A stretch of 64,000 bases of DNA, from NCBI RefSeq assembly GCF_053078305.1, contig NZ_CP166879.1; one strand, 5' to 3'. Made by a program: the position numbers and the translations under genes. This document shows, in pieces, positions 14,562-48,846 of this stretch (position 1 is the first letter of the stretch; each line of letters starts with the position of its first letter). Below the pieces are notes generated by a model. It was not told the DNA's origin. It searched no databases and saw only the letters and a program-made list of their open reading frames with translations.

Positions 14562-17500
14562 ATGAAAAAGTTACGCGTAGCCGCCTGCATGCTAATGCTG
14601 GCGCTGGCAGGGTGCGACAACAACGATAACGCGCCAACAGCGGTGAAAAAAGATGCGCCTTCTGAAGTTACTAAAGCGGCCTCTTCAGAAAACGCGAGTT
14701 CAGCAAAACTCTCCGCGCCAGAGCGACAAAAACTGGCCCAACAGAGTGCCGGTAAGGCGCTGACATTGCTGGATCTCTCTGAAGTCCAACTTGATGGTGC
14801 AGCCACGCTGGTGCTGACGTTCTCCATCCCTCTCGACCCGGATCAGGATTTCTCACGCGTTATTCATGTCGTCGATAAAAAAAGCGGCAAAGTGGATGGT
14901 GCCTGGGAGCTGTCAGATAATCTTAAAGAGCTGCGTTTACGCCACCTCGAACCGAAACGTGATTTGATCGTTACTATTGGCAAGGAGGTCAAAGCACTCA
15001 ACAACGCAACCTTCAGTAAAGATTACGAAAAAACTATAACTACCCGCGACATCCAACCCAGCGTCGGTTTTGCCAGCCGTGGTTCGCTGCTGCCAGGTAA
15101 AGTCGTTGAAGGGCTGCCGGTAATGGCGCTCAACGTTAATAATGTCGATGTTAACTTCTTCCGCGTTAAGCCAGAATCTCTGCCAGCATTCATCAGCCAA
15201 TGGGAATACCGCAATTCGCTGGCGAACTGGCAGTCAGACAAACTGCTGCAGATGGCGGATCTGGTCTACACCGGACGGTTTGATCTCAATCCTGCGCGTA
15301 ACACCCGTGAAAAATTATTGCTGCCGCTGGGCGATATCAAACCGCTTCAGCAGGCGGGCGTGTATCTGGCTGTGATGAATCAGGCTGGACGTTACGATTA
15401 CAGTAATCCCGCGACGCTGTTTACGTTAAGTGATATCGGCGTTTCAGCTCATCGTTATCACAATCGTCTGGATATCTTTACCCAAAGTCTGGAAAACGGC
15501 GCGGCCCAGCAAGGAATTGAAGTCTCTTTATTAAATGAGAAAGGGCAGACTCTGACTCAGGCAACCAGTGACGCTCAGGGGCATGTGCAGCTGGAAAATG
15601 ATAAAAACGCCGCATTATTGCTGGCACGTAAAGACGGTCAGACAACGCTACTCGATTTAAAACTTCCGGCGCTGGACTTAGCAGAATTTAACATTGCTGG
15701 CGCGCCAGGCTATAGCAAACAGTTTTTCATGTTTGGCCCGCGCGATCTTTATCGCCCGGGAGAAACGGTCATCCTCAATGGTTTGCTGCGTGATGCAGAC
15801 GGTAAAGCGTTGCCCAATCAACCCATCAAGTTAGACGTGATTAAACCCGATGGGCAGGTACTCAGGAGCGTCGTTAGTCAGCCGGAAAATGGCCTCTACC
15901 ACTTTACCTGGCCACTCGATAGCAATGCGGCAACCGGTATGTGGCATATTCGTGCTAACACGGGCGATAACCAGTATCGGATGTGGGATTTCCACGTCGA
16001 AGATTTTATGCCAGAGCGTATGGCGCTGAATCTGACCGGTGAGAAAACCCCGCTTACGCCGAATGATGAAGTGAAATTCTCCGTGGTGGGATACTACCTG
16101 TACGGTGCGCCTGCTAATGGTAATACTTTGCAAGGGCAACTTTTCCTGCGCCCACTGCGTGAGGCTGTGTCAGCCTTACCTGGTTTTGAATTCGGCGATA
16201 TAGCTGCCGAAAACCTTTCCCGCACGCTGGATGAAGTTCAGTTGACGCTGGATGATAAAGGGCGCGGCGAAGTTTCTACAGAAAGCCAGTGGAAGGAAAC
16301 GCATTCCCCATTGCAGGTTATTTTCCAGGGCAGTTTGCTGGAATCGGGCGGTCGCCCGGTGACGCGCCGTGCTGAGCAGGCTATCTGGCCAGCCGATGCA
16401 TTGCCGGGGATCCGTCCGCAGTTCGCCTCGAAATCGGTTTACGATTATCGCACTGACAGCACGGTGAAACAGCCCATTGTTGATGAAGGCAGTAACGCCG
16501 CTTTTGACATCGTTTATAGCGATGCGCAAGGCGTGAAAAAAGCCGTGTCGGGCTTGCAGGTGCGCCTGATTCGCGAACGCCGCGATTACTACTGGAACTG
16601 GTCAGAAGATGAAGGCTGGCAATCACAGTTTGATCAAAAAGATCTGATTGAAAATGAACAAACTCTGGATCTGAAAGCGGACGAAACCGGCAAGGTCAGT
16701 TTCCCGGTAGAGTGGGGCGCTTATCGTCTGGAAGTCAAAGCGCCGAATGAAGCGGTCAGTAGTGTGCGTTTCTGGGCTGGCTATAGCTGGCAGGACAACA
16801 GCGACGGGAGCGGTGCCGTGCGACCCGACCGTGTCACGCTGAAACTAGATAAAGCCAGTTATCGCCCTGGCGATACCATTAAGTTGCATATTGCCGCGCC
16901 AACGGCGGGTAAAGGTTATGCGATGGTCGAGTCCAGTGAAGGGCCGCTGTGGTGGCAAGAGATTGATGTTCCGGCTCAAGGGCTTGATCTGACGATTCCG
17001 GTCGATAAAACCTGGAATCGTCATGATCTTTATTTGAGTACGCTGGTGGTGCGTCCTGGCGATAAATCTCGCTCCGCGACGCCAAAACGCGCGGTTGGTG
17101 TGTTGCATCTGCCGCTTGGTGATGAAAACCGTCGCCTCGGTCTGGCGCTGGAAACACCAGCAAAAATGCGTCCCAATCAACCATTAACCGTGAAAATTAA
17201 AGCCAGCACTAAAAATGGCGAGAAGCCTAAACAGGTGAATGTGCTGGTGTCTGCCGTTGATAGTGGTGTGCTGAATATTACTGACTACGTCACGCCAGAT
17301 CCGTGGCAGGCGTTCTTTGGTCAGAAACGCTATGGCGCAGACATTTACGATATTTACGGTCAGGTTATTGAAGGTCAGGGGCGTCTGGCAGCTCTGCGTT
17401 TCGGTGGCGATGGTGATGAGCTGAAACGTGGTGGTAAACCGCCGGTCAATCACGTCAATATTGTCGCGCAGCAGGCGCTGCCGGTAACGCTCAACGAACA

Positions 17501-19523
17501 GGGCGAAGGCTCGGTTACACTGCCGATTGGCGATTTTAACGGTGAATTGCGCGTCATGGCGCAAGCCTGGACGGCAGATGACTTCGGTAGCAACGAAAGC
17601 AAAGTGATAGTTGCCGCACCGGTGATTGCTGAACTGAACATGCCGCGCTTTATGGCGAGTGGCGATACCTCGCGTCTGACGCTGGATATCACTAATCTTA
17701 CCGATAAACCGCAAAAACTGAACGTTGCCCTGACCGCCAGTGGTTTGCTTGAACTGGTCAGCGATTCACCCGCAGCCGTTGAATTAGCGCCAGGTGTGCG
17801 TACTACGCTGTTTATCCCGGTGCGAGCATTGCCGGGTTATGGCGATGGAGAAATTCAGGCCACCATTAGCGGGTTAGCGTTACCGGGTGAAACCGTTGCC
17901 GATCAGCATAAGCAGTGGAAAATCGGCGTCCGTCCGGCGTTCCCGGCACAAACGGTTAATTACGGTACGGCGTTACAGCCTGGTGAGACATGGGCGATTC
18001 CGGCGGATGGATTGCAAAACTTCTCGCCTGTTACGCTGGAAGGGCAATTGTTGTTGAGCGGCAAACCACCGCTGAACATCGCACGTTATATCAAAGAGTT
18101 AAAAGCGTATCCGTACGGCTGTCTTGAGCAAACCGCCAGCGGCCTGTTCCCGTCACTTTATACCAACGCAGCCCAACTGCAGGCGTTGGGCATCAAAGGC
18201 GACAGTGATGAGAAACGCCGTGCATCGGTCGATATCGGCATTTCCCGTTTGCTGCAAATGCAACGTGATAACGGCGGCTTTGTGCTGTGGGATAAAAACG
18301 GTGACGAAGAGTACTGGCTGACGGCTTACGTGATGGATTTCCTGGTCCGCGCAGGCGAACAGGGTTACAGCGTGCCGACAGACGCCATTAACCGGGGTAA
18401 TGAGCGTCTGCTGCGCTATTTACAAGATCCGGGCATGATGTCGATCCCGTACGCGGATAATCTCAAAGCCAGTAAATTCGCCGTACAGTCTTACGCTGCG
18501 CTGGTGTTGGCCCGTCAGCAAAAGGCTCCGCTGGGTGCGCTGCGTGAAATCTGGGAGCATCGTGCAGATGCCGCTTCTGGTTTACCGCTGCTGCAACTTG
18601 GCGTTGCGCTGAAAACCATGGGTGATGCAACGCGTGGTGAAGAAGCGATTGTGCTGGCGCTGAAAACGCCGAGAAATAGTGATGAGCGGATATGGCTGGG
18701 TGATTACGGTAGTCCACTGCGCGACAACGCGTTAATGCTCTCCTTGCTGGAAGAAAATAAACTGCTACCCGATGAGCAGTACACTTTGCTGAACACACTT
18801 TCGCAGCAGGCGTTTGGTGAACGCTGGCTATCGACGCAGGAAAGTAACGCGTTGTTCCTGGCTGCCCGTACGATTCAGGATTTACCGGGTAAATGGCAGG
18901 CGCAAACCTCTTTCTCAGCTGAGCCGCTGACAGGCGAGAAAGCGCAAAACAGCAATCTGAATAGCGATCAACTTGCCACCTTGCAGGTGAGCAACAGTGG
19001 CGATCAGCCGTTATGGTTGCGTGTGGATGCCAGCGGTTATCCGCAATCCGCACCTTTACCGGCGAACAATGTGCTGCAAATCGAGCGTCATATTCTTGGT
19101 ACTGATGGTAAGAGCAAATCGCTGGACTCGTTACGTAGCGGCGATCTGGTGCTGGTGTGGTTGCAGGTAAAAGCCAGTAACAGCGTGCCGGATGCGTTGG
19201 TCGTGGATCTGCTGCCTGCGGGTCTGGAACTGGAAAACCAGAATCTGGCGAACGGTAGCGCCAGCCTGGAGCAAAGTGGTGGCGAAGTGCAGAACTTACT
19301 GAACCAGATGCAGCAGGCGAGTATTAAGCACATTGAGTTCCGTGACGATCGCTTTGTGGCGGCGGTTGCCGTTGATGAATACCAACCGGTAACGCTGGTG
19401 TATCTGGCGCGGGCGGTGACGCCGGGAACGTATCAGGTACCGCAACCGATGGTGGAATCAATGTATGTTCCCCAATGGCGGGCGACCGGCGCGGCTGAAG
19501 ATTTGCTGATTGTCAGACCGTAA
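14562..19523 (+). CDS. yfhM: alpha-2-macroglobulin family lipoprotein YfhM
   Basis: 1653-aa ORF with lipobox LAGC and thioester-region motif CLEQ. Confidence 0.9.
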   Translation: MKKLRVAACMLMLALAGCDNNDNAPTAVKKDAPSEVTKAASSENASSAKLSAPERQKLAQQSAGKALTLLDLSEVQLDGAATLVLTFSIPLDPDQDFSRVIHVVDKKSGKVDGAWELSDNLKELRLRHLEPKRDLIVTIGKEVKALNNATFSKDYEKTITTRDIQPSVGFASRGSLLPGKVVEGLPVMALNVNNVDVNFFRVKPESLPAFISQWEYRNSLANWQSDKLLQMADLVYTGRFDLNPARNTREKLLLPLGDIKPLQQAGVYLAVMNQAGRYDYSNPATLFTLSDIGVSAHRYHNRLDIFTQSLENGAAQQGIEVSLLNEKGQTLTQATSDAQGHVQLENDKNAALLLARKDGQTTLLDLKLPALDLAEFNIAGAPGYSKQFFMFGPRDLYRPGETVILNGLLRDADGKALPNQPIKLDVIKPDGQVLRSVVSQPENGLYHFTWPLDSNAATGMWHIRANTGDNQYRMWDFHVEDFMPERMALNLTGEKTPLTPNDEVKFSVVGYYLYGAPANGNTLQGQLFLRPLREAVSALPGFEFGDIAAENLSRTLDEVQLTLDDKGRGEVSTESQWKETHSPLQVIFQGSLLESGGRPVTRRAEQAIWPADALPGIRPQFASKSVYDYRTDSTVKQPIVDEGSNAAFDIVYSDAQGVKKAVSGLQVRLIRERRDYYWNWSEDEGWQSQFDQKDLIENEQTLDLKADETGKVSFPVEWGAYRLEVKAPNEAVSSVRFWAGYSWQDNSDGSGAVRPDRVTLKLDKASYRPGDTIKLHIAAPTAGKGYAMVESSEGPLWWQEIDVPAQGLDLTIPVDKTWNRHDLYLSTLVVRPGDKSRSATPKRAVGVLHLPLGDENRRLGLALETPAKMRPNQPLTVKIKASTKNGEKPKQVNVLVSAVDSGVLNITDYVTPDPWQAFFGQKRYGADIYDIYGQVIEGQGRLAALRFGGDGDELKRGGKPPVNHVNIVAQQALPVTLNEQGEGSVTLPIGDFNGELRVMAQAWTADDFGSNESKVIVAAPVIAELNMPRFMASGDTSRLTLDITNLTDKPQKLNVALTASGLLELVSDSPAAVELAPGVRTTLFIPVRALPGYGDGEIQATISGLALPGETVADQHKQWKIGVRPAFPAQTVNYGTALQPGETWAIPADGLQNFSPVTLEGQLLLSGKPPLNIARYIKELKAYPYGCLEQTASGLFPSLYTNAAQLQALGIKGDSDEKRRASVDIGISRLLQMQRDNGGFVLWDKNGDEEYWLTAYVMDFLVRAGEQGYSVPTDAINRGNERLLRYLQDPGMMSIPYADNLKASKFAVQSYAALVLARQQKAPLGALREIWEHRADAASGLPLLQLGVALKTMGDATRGEEAIVLALKTPRNSDERIWLGDYGSPLRDNALMLSLLEENKLLPDEQYTLLNTLSQQAFGERWLSTQESNALFLAARTIQDLPGKWQAQTSFSAEPLTGEKAQNSNLNSDQLATLQVSNSGDQPLWLRVDASGYPQSAPLPANNVLQIERHILGTDGKSKSLDSLRSGDLVLVWLQVKASNSVPDALVVDLLPAGLELENQNLANGSASLEQSGGEVQNLLNQMQQASIKHIEFRDDRFVAAVAVDEYQPVTLVYLARAVTPGTYQVPQPMVESMYVPQWRATGAAEDLLIVRP

Positions 19524-21836
19524 ATGCCTCGCTTGTTAACCAAACGCGGCTGCTGGATAACGCTGGCAGCTGCGCCATTTCTCCTTTTTCTTGCAGCGTG
19601 GGGAGCAGATAAACTCTGGCCTCTACCGCTGCATGAAGTCAATCCCGCACGAGTGGTCGTGGCGCAGGATGGTACGCCGCTCTGGCGCTTCGCCGATGCT
19701 GACGGCATCTGGCGTTATCCTGTAACAATCGAAGATGTTTCTCCACGTTACCTTGAAGCGCTGATCAATTATGAAGATCGCTGGTTCTGGAAGCATCCTG
19801 GGGTGAATCCATTCTCGGTGGCGCGCGCAGCATGGCAAGATTTCACTTCGGGACGGGTTATTTCCGGTGGCAGCACGCTCACTATGCAGGTTGCTCGTCT
19901 GCTTGATCCTCACCCCAAAACATTTGGCGGCAAAATTCGCCAGCTCTGGCGCGCGTTGCAACTGGAGTGGCATTTGTCTAAGCGTGAAATTCTGACCTTG
20001 TATCTTAACCGCGCTCCGTTTGGCGGTACGTTGCAGGGGATCGGTGCGGCAAGTTGGGCTTATCTCGGAAAATCGCCTGCGAATTTAAGCTATTCCGAGG
20101 CGGCAATGCTGGCGGTTTTGCCGCAAGCGCCCAGCCGTCTTCGCCCGGATCGTTGGCCGGAGCGTGCCGAAGCCGCGCGTAATAAAGTGCTCGAACGGAT
20201 GGCCGTGCAAGGTGTGTGGTCCCGTGAGCAGGTAAAAGAGTCAAGGGAAGAACCCATCTGGCTGGCACCCCGACAAATGCCGCAACTGGCACCGCTGTTT
20301 TCGCGCATGATGCTCGGTAAAAGTAAAAGCGACAAAATCGTTACTACGCTGGATGCCGGGCTTCAGCGACGTCTGGAAGAACTGGCGCAAAACTGGAAAG
20401 GACGATTGCCGCCGCGCAGCTCACTGGCGATGATCGTGGTTGATCATACCGATATGCGTGTTCGCGGCTGGGTGGGATCGGTAGATCTCAACGATGATTC
20501 ACGCTTTGGTCATGTTGATATGGTCAATGCGATCCGATCGCCAGGATCGGTGCTCAAACCGTTTGTTTATGGTCTGGCGCTGGATGAAGGCTTGATCCAC
20601 CCGGCATCACTGCTGCAAGACGTCCCCCGGCGCACCGGTGATTATCGACCAGGTAACTTTGATAGCGGTTTTCATGGCCCGATCAGCATGAGCGAGGCGC
20701 TGGTGCGCTCGCTGAATTTACCTGCTGTGCAGGTACTGGAAGCCTATGGACCGAAACGGTTTGCGGCAAAGTTACGCAATGTTGGATTGCCGTTATATTT
20801 GCCCAACGGTGCGGCGCCGAATCTTTCGCTCATTCTCGGCGGCGCTGGTGCAAAACTGGAAGATATGGCGGCAGCGTATACCGCGTTTGCTCGCCACGGC
20901 AAGGCAGGCAAATTGCGCTTACAGCCTGACGATCCGCTGCTTGAACGGCCTTTAATGTCGTCGGGGGCTGCGTGGATCATTCGCCGGATTATGGCTGATG
21001 AAGCGCAACCCTTGCCGGATGGTGCCTTGCCGCGCGTCGCCCCACTGGCATGGAAAACGGGCACCAGCTATGGCTATCGTGACGCCTGGGCGATTGGGGT
21101 TAACGCTCGCTATGTCATTGGGATCTGGACTGGCAGACCGGACGGCACGCCCGTTGTTGGTCAGTTTGGTTTTGCCAGCGCCGTACCATTGTTGAATCAG
21201 GTCAATAATATCTTACTGTCGCGCAGTGCTAATCTGCCGGAAGACCCGCGCCCGAACTCAGTCACTCGTGGCGTTATCTGCTGGCCGGGCGGACAGTCTT
21301 TGCCGGAAGGTGACGGTAACTGTCGCCGCCGCCTGGCAACCTGGCTGCTGGACGGGAGTCAGCCGCCAACTCTATTACTGCCGGAGCAGGAAGGCATTAA
21401 TGGCATTCGTTTCCCCATCTGGCTGGATGAAAATGGCAAACGTGTTGCCGCTGATTGCCCTCAGGCGCGACAAGAAATGATAAATGTCTGGCCGCTACCG
21501 CTGGAACCCTGGTTGCCCGCATCAGAACGCCGCGCTGTGCGCTTACCACCGGCCTCGACAATTTGCCCGCCATACGGTCACGATGCCCAGCTCCCGCTGC
21601 AGCTGACAGGCGTTCGCGATGGCGAGATTATTAAACGTTTACCGGGCGCAGCGGAAGCGACTTTGCCGTTGCAATCAAGTGGAGGGGCAGGTGAACGCTG
21701 GTGGTTTCTGAATGGCGAACCGTTAACTGAACGCGGGCGCAACGTGACCCTGCATTTGACGGATAAAGGTGATTATCAATTGCTGGTGATGGATGACGTA
21801 GGGCAAATCGCGTCAGTACATTTTTCATTTCAGTGA
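19524..21836 (+). CDS. pbpC: penicillin-binding protein 1C (PbpC)
   Basis: 770-aa ORF; glycosyltransferase and transpeptidase (SVLKP) motifs; start abuts yfhM stop. Confidence 0.9.
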   Translation: MPRLLTKRGCWITLAAAPFLLFLAAWGADKLWPLPLHEVNPARVVVAQDGTPLWRFADADGIWRYPVTIEDVSPRYLEALINYEDRWFWKHPGVNPFSVARAAWQDFTSGRVISGGSTLTMQVARLLDPHPKTFGGKIRQLWRALQLEWHLSKREILTLYLNRAPFGGTLQGIGAASWAYLGKSPANLSYSEAAMLAVLPQAPSRLRPDRWPERAEAARNKVLERMAVQGVWSREQVKESREEPIWLAPRQMPQLAPLFSRMMLGKSKSDKIVTTLDAGLQRRLEELAQNWKGRLPPRSSLAMIVVDHTDMRVRGWVGSVDLNDDSRFGHVDMVNAIRSPGSVLKPFVYGLALDEGLIHPASLLQDVPRRTGDYRPGNFDSGFHGPISMSEALVRSLNLPAVQVLEAYGPKRFAAKLRNVGLPLYLPNGAAPNLSLILGGAGAKLEDMAAAYTAFARHGKAGKLRLQPDDPLLERPLMSSGAAWIIRRIMADEAQPLPDGALPRVAPLAWKTGTSYGYRDAWAIGVNARYVIGIWTGRPDGTPVVGQFGFASAVPLLNQVNNILLSRSANLPEDPRPNSVTRGVICWPGGQSLPEGDGNCRRRLATWLLDGSQPPTLLLPEQEGINGIRFPIWLDENGKRVAADCPQARQEMINVWPLPLEPWLPASERRAVRLPPASTICPPYGHDAQLPLQLTGVRDGEIIKRLPGAAEATLPLQSSGGAGERWWFLNGEPLTERGRNVTLHLTDKGDYQLLVMDDVGQIASVHFSFQ

Positions 21837-21930
21837 AATATACAAAATATTTATTAATCTAATTATGGTATTTATATTTGGAATGCATTAATAATTTAAT
21901 AATCTCACGTTTTTTTAAACGACTAATTAT

Positions 21931-21944
21931 TTGATTGTTATCAG
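21931..21944 (+). promoter_or_regulatory. FNR-like binding site upstream of DMSO-reductase-family operon
   Basis: TTGATTGTTATCAG matches TTGAT-N4-ATCAA at 9/10; 56 bp upstream of ATG in an AT-rich region. Confidence 0.35.
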
Positions 21945-21999
21945 CATTGTTCTCGAATAAATACGTGAATATTTATTTTTTCATTTTCGGGAACGCAAG

Positions 22000-24381
22000 A
22001 TGGATACGCCAGACGAAAAGGAACGCATTACATTTCCGCAAGTATCACGACGTAGTTTTTTACAAGCGACTTCCGCGCTTATCACTTTGCCTTTTATTTC
22101 TTATACCGTAAAGGCGCAATCCCCAGATGCGTCGCCAGAAGTTACAGCTCCAGTAGCTGATAAAGTCGTGCCCACCTGTAGCACATTTGACTGCGGTGGT
22201 AAGTGCGATATTCGGGCGCATATGCGCGACGGTGTGGTGACGCAAATTACCACGCTTCCCGATAACGAACTGGATCCACAAATGCCGATTATGCGCGCCT
22301 GTGTTCGTGGTTGCGGCTATCGTAAATTTGTTTATCATCCAGACCGCCTCAAATATCCGATGAAACGGGTCGGTAAACGGGGCGAGGGGAAATTTGAGCG
22401 TATTTCATGGGATGAGGCGACGACCTTAATTGCCGATAACCTGAAAAGGATCACGCAACAATATGGCCCGGCTTCACGTTATGTCCATGTCGGGACGGCT
22501 GTTTCTGGTGGAACATTTTCTGGTGATGCGATGGCGCGTCGGCTGTTAAATTTAACCGGTGGTTATCTTGAATATTATCACTCAGTTAGTCTGGGTAATA
22601 CTGCGGCGGCAACGCCTTACACGTATGGCGTGGCGGCCAGCGGTAACTCGATGGATACTCTTCTGGATACCAAACTGGTGATCCTCTGGGGGCATAACCC
22701 AACGGAAACCATCTTCGGTCACACCAATTACTTTTTTCAAAAAATGAAGCAAAACGGTACGCGTTTTATCGTGGTAGATCCGCGTTATTCCGACACTGTA
22801 TCTTCGCTTGCCGATCAGTGGATCCCGCTGCTGCCGACCACGGACAATGCGTTGATGGACGCGATGATGTACGTCATTATCAGCGAAAATCTCCACAATA
22901 AGACATTTATCGACACATATACTCTCGGTTTTGATGAAAACTCTATGCCAGAAGGCGTACCAGCCAACGAATCGTTGGTTGCCTACCTTTTTGGCGCAAA
23001 AGATGGGATACACAAAACGCCGGAATGGGCAGAAAAAATTACCCACGTTCCAGCACAATCCATTCGTCAACTGGCACGCGATTACGCCACTACAAAACCC
23101 GCAGCGTTGATTCAGGGATGGGGGCCACAGCGACATATTTGCGGCGAACGCACCGCCCGAGGTTCAACTTTACTGGCCTCGATTACCGGTAACGTCGGCA
23201 TCAAAGGTGGCTGGGCGGCAGGTTACGGCGGTAGTTCTAATCGTAAATTCTGCGTTGGACCAGATATGCCAGAAAATCCGGTACAAGCGAAAATCTCGAT
23301 TATGAACTGGATGCAGGCGGCGGATGATGCTTCTAAAGTTACGCCGCAAGATGGGCTTAAAGGTGTCGATAAACTCGACAGTAATATCCGCCTGCTGTTC
23401 TCACTGGCAGGTAATTATCTGGCGAACCAGAACCCGGACGTCCACCAGGCCGCGAAGCTCCTTGAAGACGAATCTAAAATAGAATTCATCGTACTCAGCG
23501 ATCTGTTCATGACTCCGAGCGCGAAATATGCCGATGTGTTGCTGCCGGAAACCAGCTTTATGGAACGCTGGAATATCGGCGAAACATGGGGAACTGCGAG
23601 CTATCTTATTCTGTCAGAAAAACTGATTGAGCCGGATTTTGAACGTCGCACCGATTATGACTGGTTGCGTGACGTGGCGAAAAAACTGGGTGTCGAAGCC
23701 GAGTTCAGTCAAGGACGTGATGAGAAGCAATGGGTAGAGCATATCTGGGAGCAAACTCGTCTGGCGATGCCGGATGAAAATTTGCCGGACTTCGCGACCC
23801 TGCAAAAAACACGTCGACATCTTTTTAAAAGTGCGCCGCACATCGCTTTCGAAGCAAATATTCGCGATCCGCAGAATAATCCTTTCCCGACGCCTTCCGG
23901 CAAAATTGAGATCTTCTCTAAGCGTCTTTTTGATATGCAAGATCCAGAAATTCCCGCGCTTTCGCACTATGTCCCTGCATTTGAAGGGCCAGAAGATAAA
24001 CTGACGGCGAAATACCCGTTGCAGCTCATCACCTGGAAAGGGAAAAACCGTGCTAATTCCACCCAGTATGCTAACCCGTGGCTGCAAGAAGTTCAGACGC
24101 AAAAACTCTGGCTGAATCCGCAAGATGCAAAACAGCGCGGGATTAGCGAAGGAGATAGCGTAAAAATTTATAACGATCGTGGTGTGAGCATTATCCCGGT
24201 GGAAATAACCCCCCGTATCATCCCTGGCGTAGTTGCTATGCAGGCGGGGGCATGGTGGCAACCGGATGCACAAGGTATCGATCGCGGAGGCTGTGCCAAT
24301 GTACTGAGTTCGACCCGCATTACGGCGCTGGCGAAAGGGAATTCGCATCAAACAATGCTGGTGGAGGTTGAGAAAGCATGA
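22000..24381 (+). CDS. molybdopterin (DMSO reductase family) oxidoreductase catalytic subunit with Tat signal
   Basis: 793 aa; SRRSFLQATSAL twin-arginine motif; N-terminal CxxCxxxC Fe-S motif (CSTFDCGGKC). Confidence 0.85.
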   Translation: MDTPDEKERITFPQVSRRSFLQATSALITLPFISYTVKAQSPDASPEVTAPVADKVVPTCSTFDCGGKCDIRAHMRDGVVTQITTLPDNELDPQMPIMRACVRGCGYRKFVYHPDRLKYPMKRVGKRGEGKFERISWDEATTLIADNLKRITQQYGPASRYVHVGTAVSGGTFSGDAMARRLLNLTGGYLEYYHSVSLGNTAAATPYTYGVAASGNSMDTLLDTKLVILWGHNPTETIFGHTNYFFQKMKQNGTRFIVVDPRYSDTVSSLADQWIPLLPTTDNALMDAMMYVIISENLHNKTFIDTYTLGFDENSMPEGVPANESLVAYLFGAKDGIHKTPEWAEKITHVPAQSIRQLARDYATTKPAALIQGWGPQRHICGERTARGSTLLASITGNVGIKGGWAAGYGGSSNRKFCVGPDMPENPVQAKISIMNWMQAADDASKVTPQDGLKGVDKLDSNIRLLFSLAGNYLANQNPDVHQAAKLLEDESKIEFIVLSDLFMTPSAKYADVLLPETSFMERWNIGETWGTASYLILSEKLIEPDFERRTDYDWLRDVAKKLGVEAEFSQGRDEKQWVEHIWEQTRLAMPDENLPDFATLQKTRRHLFKSAPHIAFEANIRDPQNNPFPTPSGKIEIFSKRLFDMQDPEIPALSHYVPAFEGPEDKLTAKYPLQLITWKGKNRANSTQYANPWLQEVQTQKLWLNPQDAKQRGISEGDSVKIYNDRGVSIIPVEITPRIIPGVVAMQAGAWWQPDAQGIDRGGCANVLSSTRITALAKGNSHQTMLVEVEKA

Positions 24382-25007
24382 GCCAATTTAAAGAATTTGC
24401 ATCTGTCAGCGACAAACAATTAGGGTTCTTTATTGACTCTTCGCGTTGTTCTGGCTGTAAAGCGTGTCAGGTGGCCTGTAAAGACAAAAACAACCTTGAG
24501 GTTGGGCGACGTTTTCGCCGCGTGTATGAAGTGAACGGCGGTGGCTTCATCGCCACTGGAGAGGGCGGTGTGAGTCATAATGTCTTTGCTTATACCCTTT
24601 CTGTTTCCTGTAACCATTGCGCGGATCCGATCTGTACCAAAAATTGCCCGACGATGGCGATGCATAAGCGTCCCGGAGACGGCATTGTGCGCGTGAATAC
24701 TGATAAGTGCGTCGGTTGCGGTTACTGCGCCTGGTCCTGTCCTTACGGCGCACCACAAATGAATGAGCAGACCGGGCAGATGTCGAAATGCGATTTCTGT
24801 ATTGATCTGCAAGCTAAAGGAGAACAACCCATTTGCGTGGCAACGTGCCCGTTGGGGGCGATTAAGTTCGGCCCTATTGATGAGTTGCGTGAAAAGTATG
24901 GCGATGTCAGTGATGTGAAAGGTTTACCTGATTCGTCGATTACGCAGCCAAATCTGGTGATTAAACCGCATCAGGGCGCGGAAAAGGAGGCGTCACATCA
25001 TGCATGA
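24378..25007 (+). CDS. 4Fe-4S ferredoxin-type electron transfer subunit (DmsB-like)
   Basis: 209 aa with multiple CxxCxxCxxxCP motifs; ATGA overlap with upstream gene. Confidence 0.85.
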   Translation: MSQFKEFASVSDKQLGFFIDSSRCSGCKACQVACKDKNNLEVGRRFRRVYEVNGGGFIATGEGGVSHNVFAYTLSVSCNHCADPICTKNCPTMAMHKRPGDGIVRVNTDKCVGCGYCAWSCPYGAPQMNEQTGQMSKCDFCIDLQAKGEQPICVATCPLGAIKFGPIDELREKYGDVSDVKGLPDSSITQPNLVIKPHQGAEKEASHHA

Positions 25008-25821
25008 ATTACCGTTAATGGCTTTTACGCTGTTGTTACAGGCATCGGTCGGTATGACGTTGTGGCTGGCGTTTCTTCATCGTCATATTTTAATCACCTC
25101 CAGTGCCCGCCCGGTTATGCGACCGCCATTACTGTTGGCTTTTTTGGCCGGGGCAGTAGGGTTACTGATTTCTACCTTACACCTGGGTTATCCACTTAAT
25201 GCGATGCATGCGCTAAGTCACTTTTCCAGTTCATGGCTGAGTCGGGAAATTATCTTTGGTGCGCTGTATCTGGCGCTATTGGGTTTAACCACATTACTGG
25301 TCATGTTACACAAAGGCGGCTGGCAACTCCTTCTTATGCTAGCGGCAGTGGTCGGAATTGTTGATGTTTTCTGCATGGCGCAAGTTTACATCCATACGTC
25401 GATTATCACCTGGCAGCATTACAACACGCTGATTATGTTCTTAGGTACAGTGGGAATTCTCGGTTCAGCGCTGGTAGCAGTGTTTCGTATTAGCGGAATT
25501 TTGCCGCAGATTGATGCCCTGCGTAATGGATGCGTGTTGGTGATCGCTCTCCTGGTTCTGTTGCGCTTGTTGGTTCAGCCGTTGTGGGTAGGGGATTTAA
25601 CGGCGAATGCGATGCAGATAGCTACACTGCCACATGCGCCATTAGCGATGCTGGGACAGTTAAAACCCATACTGACACTAAGCTGGGGAATTTCCGTCAT
25701 TGGGATGATGTTCTTTGCTGTCGGTGGTTGTAAAAAGAATATCCCTGCGGCGTTATTCGGTAGCGTACTGCTAGTGGGCAGTGAAGTTATGCTGCGTTTT
25801 GTCTTTTTTAGTATCGGCTAA
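25000..25821 (+). CDS. integral membrane anchor subunit (DmsC-like)
   Basis: 273 aa, highly hydrophobic multi-TM; 8-bp overlap with upstream gene. Confidence 0.75.
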   Translation: MHELPLMAFTLLLQASVGMTLWLAFLHRHILITSSARPVMRPPLLLAFLAGAVGLLISTLHLGYPLNAMHALSHFSSSWLSREIIFGALYLALLGLTTLLVMLHKGGWQLLLMLAAVVGIVDVFCMAQVYIHTSIITWQHYNTLIMFLGTVGILGSALVAVFRISGILPQIDALRNGCVLVIALLVLLRLLVQPLWVGDLTANAMQIATLPHAPLAMLGQLKPILTLSWGISVIGMMFFAVGGCKKNIPAALFGSVLLVGSEVMLRFVFFSIG

Positions 25822-26675
25822 TGTTAAGTCATAACATAACGATTGGCGCGGAATGCGCGCGCCAACGCTTTCGTTTTGCAACATGTCATGCCTGTGTCGA
25901 GGCTTGCCCGGCACAGGCGCTAACGCTGACAGAAGAGGGCATAGCGGTCGACGCGGAACAATGTATTGAGTGTGCGGTTTGCCAGTTTATTTGTCCGCAA
26001 GAGGCTATTCGTGGCGTTAATTCCCCTTTACGTTATTTTCGCAATCACACCCTGGTCGCACCTTTCACCACTATTGCGCCGACGCTGGAAGAACTTTTGC
26101 TATGGCATAAAGAGCAGGGGATCACAGCGATCGCGATTGATCTGAGTCAGGCGAAGGCATGGGAGCGCGCATTATTGCTGTTAAACGAACGCTTACGGCA
26201 ATATGGCGAGGAAGGCTGGTCTGTGGTATCTCCACATACCAGTGAGGTGAATGTTTCCCGGCGTCGTTTGTTCCATGTGCAGCGTGCGGATGTTCAGATG
26301 ACACAAATACAACCAGGATTACGTCGGTTACATTATTTATGGCCCCAGATTAGTGATGCTCGCCCGATGATGGATCCTCAAAAGTGTCAGCTTTGCGGTG
26401 CATGCTGGCGGGCCTGCGAGCAACAGGTCTTTTCGCTTAACGAAGGCCATTTACAAATCAATGATGCCTTGTGTAACGGATGCCAAAATTGTATTGCTGT
26501 TTGTTTTCATCAGGCAATGACCGTTGAATTGACGATTCTACCGGCAAAAATTGTGAATCTTCATGCTAATCGCAAAGTCTGTAAAACCTGTCAAAAATCC
26601 TTTCTTACTTTTCAGCAAAATGCGCAAAATTGTCTTTATTGCCAACGTCATCGCTATGGGATGAGAGCACCATAA
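25821..26675 (+). CDS. cysteine-rich ferredoxin-like protein, fourth gene of the operon
   Basis: 284 aa; motifs CHACVEACP, CIECAVCQFICP, CQLCGACWRAC, CNGCQNCIAVC; TAATG stop/start overlap. Confidence 0.7.
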   Translation: MLSHNITIGAECARQRFRFATCHACVEACPAQALTLTEEGIAVDAEQCIECAVCQFICPQEAIRGVNSPLRYFRNHTLVAPFTTIAPTLEELLLWHKEQGITAIAIDLSQAKAWERALLLLNERLRQYGEEGWSVVSPHTSEVNVSRRRLFHVQRADVQMTQIQPGLRRLHYLWPQISDARPMMDPQKCQLCGACWRACEQQVFSLNEGHLQINDALCNGCQNCIAVCFHQAMTVELTILPAKIVNLHANRKVCKTCQKSFLTFQQNAQNCLYCQRHRYGMRAP

Positions 26676-26815
26676 AAGTCGAGTTGTTGCTAAAACTCAT
26701 TTTATTTTAAAAAAATGTTACCTTCATCAATAGTCAACGGCCCTGTTGCTCATTATAATCCGCGCCATCTCGTACGCTGGTACAGACAACAACAGAACAA
26801 TTTACAGAGGTAAAA

Positions 26816-27247
26816 ATGGCTATTGAACGTACTTTTTCCATTATCAAACCGAACGCGGTAGCAAAAAACGTCATTGGTAATATCTTTGCGCGCTTTGAAG
26901 CTGCAGGGTTCAAAATTGTCGGCACCAAAATGCTGCACCTGACCGTTGAACAGGCACGTGGCTTTTATGCTGAACACGATGGAAAACCGTTCTTTGATGG
27001 TCTGGTTGAATTCATGACCTCTGGCCCGATCGTGGTTTCCGTGCTGGAAGGTGAAAACGCCGTTCAGCGTCACCGCGATCTGCTGGGCGCGACCAATCCG
27101 GCAAACGCACTGGCCGGTACTCTGCGCGCTGATTACGCTGACAGCCTGACCGAAAACGGTACCCACGGTTCTGATTCCGTCGAATCTGCCGCTCGCGAAA
27201 TCGCTTATTTCTTCGGCGAAGGCGAAGTGTGCCCGCGCACCCGTTAA
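26816..27247 (+). CDS. ndk: nucleoside diphosphate kinase
   Basis: 143-aa [18 protein letters not shown]. Confidence 0.95.
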
Positions 27248-27307
27248 TAATTTCGTAAATGCCGCGTGCAAACGTGGCATCCGTGCGCCAGAATTTGTAC
27301 AATGCAG

Positions 27308-27350
27308 CGCCCCCGGACGAGCAGCCGCTCACCGGGGCGTTTCTTTTTTC
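27308..27350 (+). terminator. ndk terminator
   Basis: GC-rich hairpin CGCCCCCGG...CCGGGGCG followed by TTTCTTTTTT. Confidence 0.5.
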
Positions 27351-27396
27351 AACCCTCCAGGGGCCATAACGTGTAATAACGAGGCCGGAATAGCAT

Positions 27397-28551
27397 ATGT
27401 CTGAACAATTAGTCACACCTGAAAACGTCACCACCAAAGATGGAAAAATCAACCTGCTGGATCTCAACCGTCAGCAGATGCGGGAGTTTTTTAAAGATTT
27501 AGGTGAAAAACCCTTCCGCGCCGATCAGGTGATGAAGTGGATGTATCACTATTGCTGCGACAACTTTGATGAGATGACTGACATCAACAAAGTGTTGCGC
27601 GGCAAACTGAAAGAGGTGGCGGAGATCCGCGCACCGGAAGTGGTTGAAGAACAGCGTTCATCTGACGGCACCATTAAATGGGCGATCGCCGTAGGCGATC
27701 AGCGCGTCGAAACGGTGTATATCCCGGAAGACGACCGTGCCACGCTCTGCGTCTCTTCGCAGGTGGGGTGTGCGCTGGAGTGTAAATTCTGTTCCACCGC
27801 CCAGCAGGGCTTTAACCGCAACCTGCGGGTATCGGAAATTATCGGCCAGGTTTGGCGTGCGGCGAAAATCGTCGGCGCAGCAAAAGTCACCGGTCAGCGC
27901 CCAATCACTAACGTAGTGATGATGGGCATGGGCGAGCCGCTGCTCAACCTGAACAACGTCGTTCCGGCGATGGAAATCATGCTTGATGATTTCGGTTTTG
28001 GCCTGTCTAAACGTCGCGTGACGCTTTCCACTTCCGGTGTAGTTCCAGCGCTGGATAAACTGGGCGATATGATCGACGTTGCGCTGGCAATTTCCCTGCA
28101 CGCGCCGAACGACGAAATTCGTGACGAAATTGTGCCGATCAACAAAAAGTACAATATCGAAACGTTCCTTGCTGCGGTGCGCCGTTATCTGGAGAAATCC
28201 AACGCCAATCAAGGCCGAGTCACTATTGAATACGTGATGCTTGACCACGTTAACGACGGCACTGAACACGCGCACCAACTGGCGGAACTGCTGAAAGATA
28301 CGCCGTGTAAGATCAACCTGATCCCGTGGAACCCGTTCCCGGGCGCACCGTATGGACGCAGCTCGAACAGCCGTATCGACCGTTTCTCAAAAGTGCTGAT
28401 GAGCTACGGTTTCACCACTATTGTGCGTAAAACGCGTGGTGATGATATCGATGCTGCCTGTGGTCAGTTGGCGGGCGATGTTATCGACCGTACGAAACGT
28501 ACCCTGCGTAAACGGATGCAGGGTGAAGCCATCGACATTAAAGCGGTCTGA
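27397..28551 (+). CDS. rlmN: 23S rRNA/tRNA A-C2 methyltransferase RlmN (radical SAM)
   Basis: 384-aa ORF with CALECKFC radical-SAM motif. Confidence 0.9.
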
Positions 28552-46461: not shown

Positions 46462-46475
46462 TTGATATATATCAA
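46462..46475 (+). promoter_or_regulatory. FNR binding site upstream of pdeF
   Basis: TTGATATATATCAA is a perfect TTGAT-N4-ATCAA palindrome 128 bp upstream of pdeF start. Confidence 0.5.
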
Positions 46476-46602: not shown

Positions 46603-48846
46603 ATGAAACTGAATGCAACTTATATAAAAATACGTGATAAATGGTGGGGGCTTCCGCTGTTCCTGCCTTCTTTAATCTTGCCCATTTTCGCCCACATTAA
46701 TACTTTCGCGCATATTTCTTCCGGTGAGGTTTTTCTCTTTTATCTGCCTTTGGCACTGATGATCAGCATGATGATGTTTTTCAGCTGGGCGGCATTGCCA
46801 GGGATCGCCTTAGGGATTTTTGTCCGCAAATATGCAGAGCTTGGTTTTTACGAAACGCTCTCATTAACGGCTAATTTTATTATCATTATCATTCTCTGTT
46901 GGGGCGGTTACAGGGTCTTTACTCCCCGCCGTAACAACGTTTCACATGGTGATACCCGTTTAATTTCCCAGCGTATATTCTGGCAGATTGTGTTTCCTGC
47001 AACGCTGTTTCTGATACTTTTCCAGTTTGCTGCGTTTGTAGGATTACTGGCGAGCAGAGAAAATCTGGTCGGCGTCATGCCTTTTAACCTCGGGACCTTA
47101 ATCAATTATCAGGCCTTACTGGTGGGTAATCTGATCGGTGTCCCGCTGTGCTACTTCATCATTCGGGTAGTGCGAAATCCATTTTATTTACGTAGCTATT
47201 ATTCGCAATTAAAACAGCAGGTTGATGTCAAAGTCACCAAAAAAGAGTTCGCACTCTGGCTACTGGCATTAGGTGCTTTACTGTTGCTGTTATGCATGCC
47301 GTTAAATGAAAAAAGCACAATTTTTAGCACCAATTATACCTTGTCATTATTGCTGCCCCTGATGATGTGGGGAGCGATGCGCTATGGTTATAAGCTGATT
47401 TCGCTGCTCTGGGCGGTCGTGTTGATGATCAGCATCCACAGCTATCAAAATTACATTCCCATTTATCCTGGCTATACCACGCAGCTGACCATAACCTCCT
47501 CCAGTTATCTGGTATTCTCTTTTATTGTCAATTATATGGCTGTACTGGCAACCCGTCAGAGAACGGTAGTCAGACGCATTCAGCGGCTTGCGTATGTGGA
47601 CCCGGTGGTTCATCTGCCAAATGTTCGCGCCCTGAATCGCGCGTTGCGTGATGCCCCCTGGTCTGCGCTTTGTTATTTACGCATCCCTGGCATGGAAATG
47701 CTGGTTAAGAACTATGGCATCATGCTGCGGATTCAATACAAGCAAAAACTTTCTCACTGGCTGTCACCCTTGCTGGAACCGGGTGAAGATGTTTATCAGC
47801 TTTCGGGTAACGATCTCGCGCTGCGACTGAATACAGAATCGCACCAGGAGCGCATTGCCGCACTGGATAGCCATCTCAAGCAATTTCGTTTCTTTTGGGA
47901 TGGCATGCCGATGCAACCGCAGATTGGCGTCAGTTACTGCTATGTGCGCTCGCCAGTGAATCATATCTACCTGCTGCTGGGAGAGCTAAATACGGTCGCC
48001 GAACTTTCCATCGTGACCAACGCCCCGGAAAATATGCAGCGTCGCGGGGCAATGTATTTGCAACGCGAATTGAAAGATAAAGTCGCGATGATGAATCGAC
48101 TACAGCAGGCGCTGGAACACAACCATTTTTTCCTGATGGCCCAGCCGATTACCGGTATGCGTGGTGATGTTTACCATGAAATTCTTCTGCGCATGAAAGG
48201 TGAGAATGATGAACTGATCGGCCCCGATAGCTTCTTGCCGGTCGCGCACGAATTTGGTTTATCGTCGAGTATCGACATGTGGGTCATTGAGCATACGCTG
48301 CAATTTATGGCTGAAAACAGAGCGAAGATGCCCGCTCACCGTTTTGCTATTAATCTGTCTCCAACCTCGGTATGTCAGGCTCGTTTTCCTGTTGAAGTCA
48401 GTCAGTTGCTGGATAAATATCAGATTGAAGCGTGGCAACTTATTTTTGAAGTCACCGAAAGTAATGCTCTGACCAATGTTAAGCAGGCGCAAATCACCTT
48501 GCAGCATCTTCAGGAATTAGGCTGCCAGATTGCGATTGATGATTTCGGCACCGGCTACGCCAGCTATGCGCGGCTTAAAAATGTGAATGCCGATCTGCTT
48601 AAAATTGACGGCAGTTTTATCCGCAATATTGTGTCAAATAGTCTGGATTATCAGATAGTGGCATCGATTTGCCACCTGGCGCGAATGAAGAAAATGCGGG
48701 TAGTGGCAGAGTACGTTGAAAACGAAGAGATCCGCGAGGCGGTGCTCTCTTTGGGGATCGATTATATGCAGGGTTATCTTATTGGTAAGCCGCAGCCGTT
48801 AATTGATACGTTGAATGAAATCGAACCCATTCGCGAAAGTGCCTGA
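46603..48846 (+). CDS. pdeF: c-di-GMP phosphodiesterase PdeF (YfgF); MASE1 membrane domain, degenerate GGDEF, EAL
   Basis: 747-aa ORF with multi-TM N-terminus and EAL-domain motifs. Confidence 0.85.
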   Translation: MKLNATYIKIRDKWWGLPLFLPSLILPIFAHINTFAHISSGEVFLFYLPLALMISMMMFFSWAALPGIALGIFVRKYAELGFYETLSLTANFIIIIILCWGGYRVFTPRRNNVSHGDTRLISQRIFWQIVFPATLFLILFQFAAFVGLLASRENLVGVMPFNLGTLINYQALLVGNLIGVPLCYFIIRVVRNPFYLRSYYSQLKQQVDVKVTKKEFALWLLALGALLLLLCMPLNEKSTIFSTNYTLSLLLPLMMWGAMRYGYKLISLLWAVVLMISIHSYQNYIPIYPGYTTQLTITSSSYLVFSFIVNYMAVLATRQRTVVRRIQRLAYVDPVVHLPNVRALNRALRDAPWSALCYLRIPGMEMLVKNYGIMLRIQYKQKLSHWLSPLLEPGEDVYQLSGNDLALRLNTESHQERIAALDSHLKQFRFFWDGMPMQPQIGVSYCYVRSPVNHIYLLLGELNTVAELSIVTNAPENMQRRGAMYLQRELKDKVAMMNRLQQALEHNHFFLMAQPITGMRGDVYHEILLRMKGENDELIGPDSFLPVAHEFGLSSSIDMWVIEHTLQFMAENRAKMPAHRFAINLSPTSVCQARFPVEVSQLLDKYQIEAWQLIFEVTESNALTNVKQAQITLQHLQELGCQIAIDDFGTGYASYARLKNVNADLLKIDGSFIRNIVSNSLDYQIVASICHLARMKKMRVVAEYVENEEIREAVLSLGIDYMQGYLIGKPQPLIDTLNEIEPIRESA

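Follow-up and report, generated by a model that had tools for sequence, protein, structure and literature searches.

A DmsABC-type four-gene operon between pbpC and ndk of Escherichia coli: probable counterpart of Salmonella STM2530-STM2527 and ancestral locus absent from most strains

A 64,000-nucleotide stretch of contig NZ_CP166879.1 (assembly GCF_053078305.1; below, the window) carries four overlapping genes between pbpC and ndk, here called A, B, C and D, which code for a predicted anaerobic molybdoenzyme of the dimethyl sulfoxide (DMSO) reductase family, its partner subunits and a cysteine-rich protein. We consider this block, at a probability of about 0.7, to be the Escherichia coli counterpart of Salmonella STM2530-STM2527, i.e., an old DmsABC-type anaerobic reductase set of the Enterobacteriaceae that has had its place between pbpC and ndk all along and that was lost from most E. 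coli by one ancient clean deletion.

Results

Gene content of the pbpC-ndk interval

Gene coordinates were taken from a six-frame list of open reading frames (ORFs). The block extends from 22000 to 26675, inside the interval that the initial annotation had given, between pbpC (19524-21836) and ndk (26816-27247), and all genes are on the plus strand. It consists of gene A (22000-24381, 793 amino acids), for a molybdenum-bis(pyranopterin guanine dinucleotide) (Mo-bisPGD) catalytic subunit of the DmsA/YnfE subfamily; gene B (24378-25007, 209 amino acids), for an electron-transfer subunit with four [4Fe-4S] clusters; gene C (25000-25821, 273 amino acids), for a DmsC-type membrane anchor and quinol oxidase; and gene D (25821-26675, 284 amino acids), for a 20-Cys protein predicted to be cytoplasmic. 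The A/B, B/C and C/D overlaps are 4, 8 and 1 nt, as expected of translationally coupled genes. The GC content of the block (48-50%) is close to that of the window (51%), and an AT-rich spacer of 163 bp with 22% GC (21837-21999) precedes A; its length had initially been given as 160 bp.

In E. coli Sakai, A to D are ECs_3384, ECs_3383, ECs_3382 and ECs_3381; the annotation there names A as subunit A of an S- and N-oxide reductase, B and C as the corresponding chains of a DMSO reductase and D as a hypothetical protein. The locus has thus been documented from the time of the Sakai annotation. RefSeq gives these genes in other E. coli too, with identical starts. K-12 MG1655 has a 148-bp gap between pbpC and ndk with no gene inside, and the absence of the operon from K-12, which the initial annotation had presumed, is thus real.

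The operon is ancestral at its site

The initial annotation described the block as inserted. Sequence comparison points to the opposite polarity: the operon is ancestral at the pbpC-ndk site and K-12 carries an old clean deletion, because the operon is syntenic in at least seven genera, has diverged to the same extent as its flanks and bears no signature of mobility.

Orthologous loci were collected with a D-profile scan of one genome per species, which gave ten loci, and more were added by exact-protein look-up. The order yfhM-pbpC-A-B-C-D-ndk-rlmN-rodZ was found in Salmonella arizonae and diarizonae, Enterobacter sp., Lelliottia, Huaxiibacter, Pseudocitrobacter and Citrobacter freundii, and the partial loci of two cryptic Escherichia clades fit the same order. 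The deeper relatives Enterobacillus and Chimaeribacter and two metagenomic contigs have ABCD at other loci. Identity to other genera is 82-90% for A and B, comparable with 77-82% for the flanking pbpC and yfhM. At shorter range, the window and an O157-like strain differ by a synonymous divergence (dS) of 0.057 in A and 0.083 in C, against 0.056 in pbpC and 0.074 in rlmN.

The borders of the block are clean. No integrase, transposase or tRNA was found there, and a search for repeats returned AT-rich chance matches only. On the right, a block containing the ndk promoter (26684-26815, plus strand, with TAGTCA-17-TATAAT at 26731-26759) is identical in K-12, is kept across genera and starts 3-15 nt past the stop codon of D in every genus. 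On the left, the last eight codons of pbpC in the window are unlike those of K-12. Multi-genus alignment, however, revealed them to be a homologous variable tail of the form x-V-x-F-x-(F/L/M)-Q-stop, present in K-12, the window, a cryptic Escherichia clade and Citrobacter and of equal length in Escherichia and Citrobacter. Since the tails are homologous in both haplotypes, the left edge of the block is the pbpC stop codon. A left junction lying ca. 24 nt inside pbpC, with a K-12 tail chimeric with the 3′ end of D, had been considered and was rejected for the same reason. Overall, the hallmarks of a genomic island (mobility genes, tRNA or repeat borders, foreign composition, a variable site) were not found at this locus.

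Cruz et al. suggested that Salmonella gained the operon after its split from Escherichia (bioRxiv 10.1101/2022.11.29.517730). This is contradicted by the synteny, which puts the operon at the same site across genera.

A comparison of Escherichia sp. E1V33 (locus L004) with positions 19600-26600 of the window gave a mosaic of similarity, ranging from 85 to 100% in 400-nt windows; dS is 0.29 for pbpC and 0.015-0.10 for A, B and C. Because of this mosaic we consider that the block moves between Escherichia lineages by homologous exchange. The pattern points to recombination between E. coli and the cryptic clade, yet it does not explain the distribution seen in E. coli.

Distribution among E. coli and loss of the operon

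Comparison of the pbpC-ndk junction across 5426 complete E. coli genomes, which the initial annotation had proposed, separated two main states. The whole block is present in 379 genomes (7%), mostly O157:H7 or O55:H7 with scattered other strains; it is always chromosomal and at this site, with 97.9-99.4% identity, and in none of the 379 carriers is it on a plasmid. As the initial annotation had stated, then, the locus exists in Salmonella, at the same site in S. enterica, and in some lineages of E. coli. A K-12-type junction is present at full length in 5010 genomes, with identity to K-12 that spreads from 90 to 100% and amounts to just 90-95% in 1459 of them, and this spread fits an old deletion. 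Approximately 37 genomes have neither the full operon nor a full K-12-type junction. From these and the 1459 divergent junctions, one low-quality assembly and one divergent-junction example were looked at singly; the low-quality assembly of strain P276M was disregarded.

The right edge of the K-12 deletion falls at 26683/26684, with K-12 identical to the window from 26684 on. Between the pbpC stop codon and the ndk promoter block, K-12 has 16 bases, TCTGTTTTGTCCCTGA (locus L001, 1738-1753), a counterpart of which was not found in operon-bearing genomes. In E. coli ZF8-1 (locus L016, 4001-5175) A keeps its initial 108 nt and D its final 315 nt, with an IS1A element in place of everything between them, which shows an independent IS1-mediated deletion and a locus still being lost.

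Where retained, all four genes are under purifying selection: the ratios of nonsynonymous to synonymous substitution rates against the most divergent Escherichia clade are 0.07 for A, 0.06 for B, 0.13 for C and 0.125 for D. Between genera, C evolves ca. 3.4 and D ca. 4.3 times faster than A (every genus pair, and the window against loci L005-L013), and the cofactor ligands are invariant. Replacement of the C-D half by foreign DNA in E. coli was considered and rejected, as C and D are fast-evolving among all genera.

Subunits A, B and C

Profile searches place A in the DMSO reductase family and reveal the Mo-bisPGD domain on which that assignment depends, with matches to PF00384 (1.7e-52) and PF01568 (1.4e-23) and a weak match to the Fe4S4 domain. 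A scores 1118 bits against TIGR02166, the model of the DmsA/YnfE subfamily (cutoff, 778), and falls far below the cutoffs of the DmsA, YnfE and YnfF equivalog models, with 701, 664 and 686 bits against 1600, 1675 and 1650, respectively. Its identity to K-12 DmsA, YnfE and YnfF is 43, 40 and 42%, whereas these three are 66-71% identical to one another. The comparison that the initial annotation had called for thus puts A in the same subfamily but outside their cluster.

The N terminus of A has a predicted twin-arginine translocation (Tat) signal, in line with the export initially proposed: the leader V-S-R-R-S-F-L-Q contains the twin-arginine motif S16-R-R-S-F-L-Q22 (22045-22065) and is followed by a hydrophobic stretch and VKA-QS. 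The pattern SRRxF(L/I/V)(Q/K) is present in most aligned A orthologues, variants being SRRDALK in Enterobacillus and NRRQFIK in locus L020. The ligands of the [4Fe-4S] cluster FS0 are Cys60, Cys65, Cys69 and Cys101 (22177-22302), spaced C-x4-C-x3-C-x31-C, and the bridging Arg103, two residues past the fourth Cys, is retained. Ser197 (22588-22590) aligns with the molybdenum ligand Ser147 of the Rhodobacter DMSO reductase (phmmer, 4dmr_A) and is invariant among aligned orthologues.

B and C are DmsB- and DmsC-like, as proposed initially. B scores 266 bits against the DmsB equivalog model TIGR02951 (cutoff, 214), is 58% identical to DmsB and conserves 16 of its 16 cysteines. C matches PF04976, is hydrophobic in segments over its entire length and conserves the equivalents of DmsC His65 and Glu87 of the quinol site. 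With DmsABC and YnfEFGH-DmsD of E. coli (DMSO and selenate/tellurate reductases), the block therefore shares its subunit architecture, NCBIfam subfamily, Tat leader, Ser ligand to molybdenum, FS0, a 16-Cys B subunit and a DmsC-type anchor with the quinol-site His and Glu. It differs in that the operon has no DmsD gene, its last gene coding instead for the 20-Cys Fe-S protein.

The Salmonella counterpart

The S. enterica loci compared, taken to represent STM2530-STM2527 (STM14_3103-3100, "psr1"), agree with the block of the window in all four genes, in their order and in the location between pbpC and ndk. We take STM2526 to be ndk and STM2531 to be pbpC. The features of this group, namely ABCD between pbpC and ndk, C-x4-C-x3-C in A and an upstream FNR box, are all present in the window, the Salmonella loci compared being those of subspecies arizonae and diarizonae, not LT2. 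Identity between these loci and the window is ca. 83% for A and ca. 86% for B, and falls to ca. 51-53% for C and ca. 40% for D. STM2530, by its published figure, and A of the window are both 43% identical to E. coli DmsA (10.1101/2022.11.29.517730). In the same study STM2530 was assigned to an operon with a fourth gene and supported no DMSO-dependent growth, and frameshifts in the operon were reported for S. Typhi and Paratyphi A. The two species differ in the fate of the locus, which according to published work is fixed in non-typhoidal Salmonella, whereas in E. coli only 7% of genomes keep it and the window allele carries an R105C substitution in A.

Regulatory signals

A box resembling the FNR site, TTGATtgttATCAG, is located at 21931-21944 on the plus strand, with 9 of 10 consensus bases and its centre 62 nt ahead of the ATG of A. 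Boxes with 0-2 mismatches were found upstream of A in 10 of the 10 orthologous loci scanned, 33-62 nt before the ORF start used, in spacers that are otherwise unalignable; the Salmonella box, TTGATAAATATCAA, is perfect. Such spacing would suit class II activation by FNR, with a weak -10 element near 21968-21973. In Salmonella, psr1A is reported to be among the loci most strongly activated by FNR (PMC12636705).

A scan for σ70 promoters found no strong consensus promoter ahead of A, and the ndk promoter alone stood out. Nothing terminator-like was detected between D and ndk in a terminator scan, and ndk retains its own consensus promoter. An Rfam scan of 21500-27500 gave zero matches, neither a molybdenum cofactor riboswitch nor any other known RNA.

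The fourth protein and its family

D has exactly 20 cysteines in its 284 residues and so bears out the initial description of a Cys-rich fourth protein. They are arranged in four ferredoxin-type motifs (CxxCxxCxxxC) and a C-terminal CxxC-x13-CxxC, with an unassigned middle domain in addition. Neither a signal peptide nor a transmembrane segment was detected in its sequence. Profile scans returned generic Fer4 models only and no named family, and in sequence and fold D comes closest to polyferredoxins and modules of the NuoI/HycF type. A search of 1.84 billion representative proteins with a D-family profile gave ca. 80 clusters at E < 1e-30, mostly aligned over the full length of about 280-310 residues. 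In 51 members of 22-54% identity, 20 of the 20 cysteines are invariant. Members of named origin belong to Enterobacterales, a Betaproteobacterium and Bacillaceae, each under the generic label "4Fe-4S binding protein".

Nine further loci with a D-family gene were inspected, from Citrobacter, other Enterobacterales, Bacillaceae and metagenomes. In each (9/9) its neighbours code for a molybdopterin subunit, an Fe-S subunit and an anchor of the DmsC or NrfD type, although one contig has the end of the molybdopterin gene only. Five of the nine also have a gene for a chaperone of PF02613 (TorD/DmsD/NarJ). D itself has no TorD/DmsD/NarJ match in Pfam and no similarity to DmsD, and because D-family and PF02613 genes co-occur, the idea that D replaces DmsD was rejected. 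In locus L027 (6001-7121), the D-family gene is found between a chaperone gene and a TatA/B/E gene, which directly follows it. In locus L028 (6001-8955), a radical S-adenosylmethionine (SAM) gene and then a TorD-type chaperone gene come directly after it. These two neighbourhoods, both from distant relatives, hint at a role of the family in maturation or export. In Mesobacillus, the D-family gene is divergent from the chaperone and structural genes and adjoins the chaperone gene.

NapF offers an analogy. NapA requires this cytoplasmic protein, which has four tetra-Cys motifs, for Fe-S assembly ahead of Tat export, and in Wolinella the quinol dehydrogenase tethers it to the membrane (PMC10609526). 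D is likewise predicted to be cytoplasmic, has four tetra-Cys motifs and is encoded with a predicted Tat-exported Mo-bisPGD enzyme. We also count as a likeness that NapF is non-essential and patchily distributed (PMC10609526). This is resemblance rather than membership: alignment by hhalign covers 47 columns of one ferredoxin module only and not NapF at full length, and the 25 top NCBIfam hits listed for D include no NapF model. Furthermore, D is 120 residues longer and has the extra middle domain and the C-terminal CxxC...CxxC module. A role in cluster insertion would apply to D by analogy. A parallel to the loci with ABCD and a PF02613 gene is provided by dmsABCDE of Haemophilus influenzae, a DmsABC operon with the DmsD chaperone and an extra Fe-S protein gene for DmsE, a NapF-like putative chaperone (PMC8340005). 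No Haemophilus protein is among the named D-family hits, and homology of D to DmsE, which was compared by description, seems unlikely.

On these grounds D is most likely a maturation or proofreading factor for the Fe-S clusters of A-B before export, NapF-like in action without being a relative of NapF, and most likely acts alongside a TorD/DmsD-type chaperone, not in place of it. More tentatively, D may define an unrecognised family of 20-Cys proteins of ca. 290-305 residues that are dedicated accessory factors of DmsABC/PsrABC-type enzymes and that, together with a TorD-type chaperone, insert or proofread Fe-S clusters, perhaps FS0, before Tat export; we put forward this combined proposal as a possibility that is itself less probable than its opposite. 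A bolder and less likely idea is that D, bound to the anchor, supplies the complex with low-potential electrons from the cytoplasm.

D could also be a stoichiometric fourth electron-transfer subunit, either a polyferredoxin wire on the cytoplasmic face of C or a protein co-exported with A-B. Its four ferredoxin-type motifs and its polyferredoxin and NuoI/HycF-type matches suit such a role, as does its coupling to C through the 1-nt overlap. C and D are both fast-evolving, and the residual correlation of their distances is 0.37, against -0.06 for B and D; this weak signal is compatible with D touching C and is not significant evidence. However, DmsC-type anchors are haem-free and hence have no known transmembrane electron path to a cytoplasmic partner, and D has no Tat signal. 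The position of the D-family gene in Mesobacillus, outside the structural operon, and its placement elsewhere between chaperone and TatA genes or beside chaperone and radical-SAM genes also fit an electron wire poorly, and we regard this alternative as unlikely.

An R105C substitution in the window allele of A

Codon 105 of A (22312-22314) is TGC in the window and codes for Cys. The Arg expected here belongs to the motif RAC(V/L/I)RGR and is invariant in all orthologues compared at this site as well as in DmsA, YnfE and YnfF; the codon is CGC in the two E. coli loci checked. The substitution, a single CGC to TGC transition four positions past the last FS0 ligand, is private to this strain: the 61-nt stretch around codon 105 has an exact match in 0 of the 379 operon-bearing genomes, the best having one mismatch. 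R105C may harm the enzyme, have no effect or stem from a sequencing error.

Should it be damaging, the operon in this strain would be functionally impaired and on its way to loss. The invariance of Arg105 and the privacy of the change speak for this, as does the proneness of the locus to loss, seen in the IS1 deletion, the K-12 junction and a Pseudocitrobacter A gene that is split and looks frameshifted. On the other side, all four ORFs of the window are intact, the change is one transition that may be neutral or erroneous, and residue 105 is not the known bridging Arg, which is kept. An operon in decay is therefore a rather improbable description of this strain. The Pseudocitrobacter case is P. 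faecalis DSM 27453 (locus L006, 5166-7537), in which A occupies two overlapping frames, apparently through a frameshift, and is likely a pseudogene; B, C and D are intact.

The electron acceptor

The initial annotation stated that the substrate is unknown. For the Salmonella counterpart, this can be updated by negative data for DMSO and methionine sulfoxide and by a claim for sulfate. We consider DMSO and methionine sulfoxide improbable as acceptors, and the scores of A below the DmsA, YnfE and YnfF cutoffs agree with this view.

In a Research Square preprint of 2025 that is unreviewed, Kim et al. renamed the Salmonella gene psr1A and called its product a periplasmic sulfate reductase (PMC12636705). 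They reported that mutants respire DMSO and methionine sulfoxide normally and are lower in sulfite and H2S, that membranes oxidise viologen in a sulfate-dependent manner and that the Ser ligand is dispensable. They proposed FS0, not molybdenum, as the catalytic centre and noted the x4 spacing in the Psr1A clade (PMC12636705). Neither this preprint nor the study of Cruz et al. (10.1101/2022.11.29.517730) discusses the fourth gene or the E. coli copy.

Transferred to the window, the proposal would make the complex a periplasmic, molybdenum-independent sulfate reductase ("Psr1") with a catalytic FS0, delivering sulfite into sulfur assimilation. Besides the viologen, sulfite/H2S and Ser data just cited, it can draw on the Psr1A-type C-x4-C-x3-C of A and its ca. 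83% identity to the Salmonella protein. The experiments on molybdenum independence and the electron paramagnetic resonance work, on the other hand, were performed with Psr3, which is YnfE-like, and not with Psr1 (PMC12636705). There is also a thermodynamic and a structural objection. Reduction of free sulfate by menaquinol is strongly endergonic, with E0′ of about -516 mV for sulfate and about -74 mV for menaquinol. All known sulfate reduction first activates sulfate to adenosine 5′-phosphosulfate. A and B, moreover, are strongly constrained across the Mo-bisPGD fold and the Ser is invariant, which would be unexpected if molybdenum were irrelevant. Because of the energetics and of the constraint on fold and Ser, we treat the sulfate claim as unconfirmed and consider it quite improbable for the E. 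coli enzyme.

A redundant third DMSO/methionine sulfoxide reductase, equivalent to DmsABC and YnfEFGH, is suggested by the common NCBIfam subfamily and subunit set, by the RefSeq and Sakai names ("anaerobic dimethyl sulfoxide reductase") and by retention of the Ser ligand. We find it very unlikely. The 40-43% identity of A to proteins that are mutually 66-71% identical, together with scores far below the model cutoffs, sets A apart; the FS0 spacing is C-x4-C-x3-C in A as opposed to C-x3-C-x3-C in aligned DmsA, YnfE and YnfF; the loop ahead of the Ser ligand has a 5-residue deletion in A and residues that differ from those of the three; and two studies found no DMSO or methionine sulfoxide phenotype for the Salmonella counterpart (10.1101/2022.11.29.517730; PMC12636705). 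An apparent loss of the equivalents of DorA Tyr114 and Trp116, tried as a further argument against DMSO, was dropped, as alignments conflict in that loop.

Outer flanks and a second FNR site in the window

The outer neighbours of the locus are yfhM (14562-19523) and rlmN (27397-28551), both on the plus strand. Elsewhere in the window, a perfect FNR consensus, TTGATATATATCAA, is found at 46462-46475, ca. 130 nt upstream of a 747-aa ORF (46603-48846) that by position is Sakai yfgF, annotated as a cyclic-di-GMP phosphodiesterase. The gene yfgF is known to be FNR-dependent.

Discussion

We propose that the pbpC-ndk block would work as follows. FNR would activate a promoter inside the AT-rich spacer; A would acquire the [4Fe-4S] cluster FS0 and Mo-bisPGD in the cytoplasm and bind B with its four [4Fe-4S] clusters, while D, remaining cytoplasmic, would mature or proofread the Fe-S clusters of A-B; the A-B pair would then be exported by Tat through the twin-arginine leader of A and dock on C. 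There, C would oxidise menaquinol, and the electrons would travel by way of B and FS0 to molybdenum, where a periplasmic oxo-acceptor would take them up. Sequence comparison establishes the gene content, the family assignment, the conservation of cofactor ligands, the synteny, the distribution and the purifying selection; regulation, topology, electron path, substrate class and the role of D are deduced from these.

Several points weigh against parts of this account. The equivalence to STM2530-STM2527 rests on the arizonae and diarizonae loci, the published description of four genes, the 43% identity to DmsA and the assignment of STM2526 as ndk and STM2531 as pbpC, and a literature search with the Sakai (ECs3381-3384) and EDL933 locus tags gave nothing relevant on the E. 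coli genes. The FNR box of the window has one mismatch and, taken alone, does not exceed chance (4 found, 2.7 expected). The private R105C may mean that the enzyme is impaired in this strain. The sulfate reductase data, if confirmed, would shift the mechanism from molybdenum-based to FS0-based catalysis. The role of D is argued from gene association, its likeness to NapF being one ferredoxin module, and its evolution at ca. four times the rate of A is equally compatible with a loosely constrained electron-wire subunit.

As to the polarity of the locus, the competing view takes the block for a genomic island that a minority of E. coli lineages acquired horizontally between pbpC and ndk, and Cruz et al. 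hold a similar view for Salmonella. We find this highly improbable: the 7% occurrence, the 22% GC spacer and the slightly lower GC of the block than of its flanks, the ABCD sets of deeper relatives at other loci and an E1V33 block nearer to the window than is pbpC would suit it, but it is at odds with an identical site and gene order in at least seven genera, with divergence that matches the flanks between genera and within E. coli, with borders free of integrase, transposase, tRNA and repeats, and with the distance of 3-15 nt from D to the ndk promoter block in every genus and the homologous pbpC tails.

The locus itself is already known and, being annotated in Sakai and studied in its Salmonella counterpart, it is not novel as such. 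Added here are the recognition of an ancestral operon lost from most E. coli, the conserved FNR box, the D family, spread across several phyla and tied to DmsABC/PsrABC-type enzymes, and the private R105C. For specialists these hold no large surprise. With regard to the substrate, the E. coli copy offers an independent setting, with strains that naturally have or lack the operon, for testing the claim of a molybdenum-free sulfate reductase. D, from a widely distributed 20-Cys family associated with such molybdoenzymes, lends itself to studies of enzyme maturation. Finally, the locus illustrates a bias of the model strain: K-12 represents the derived state, and O157:H7, like ca. 7% of E. coli altogether, retains an additional anaerobic reductase of the FNR type, which is shared with Salmonella.

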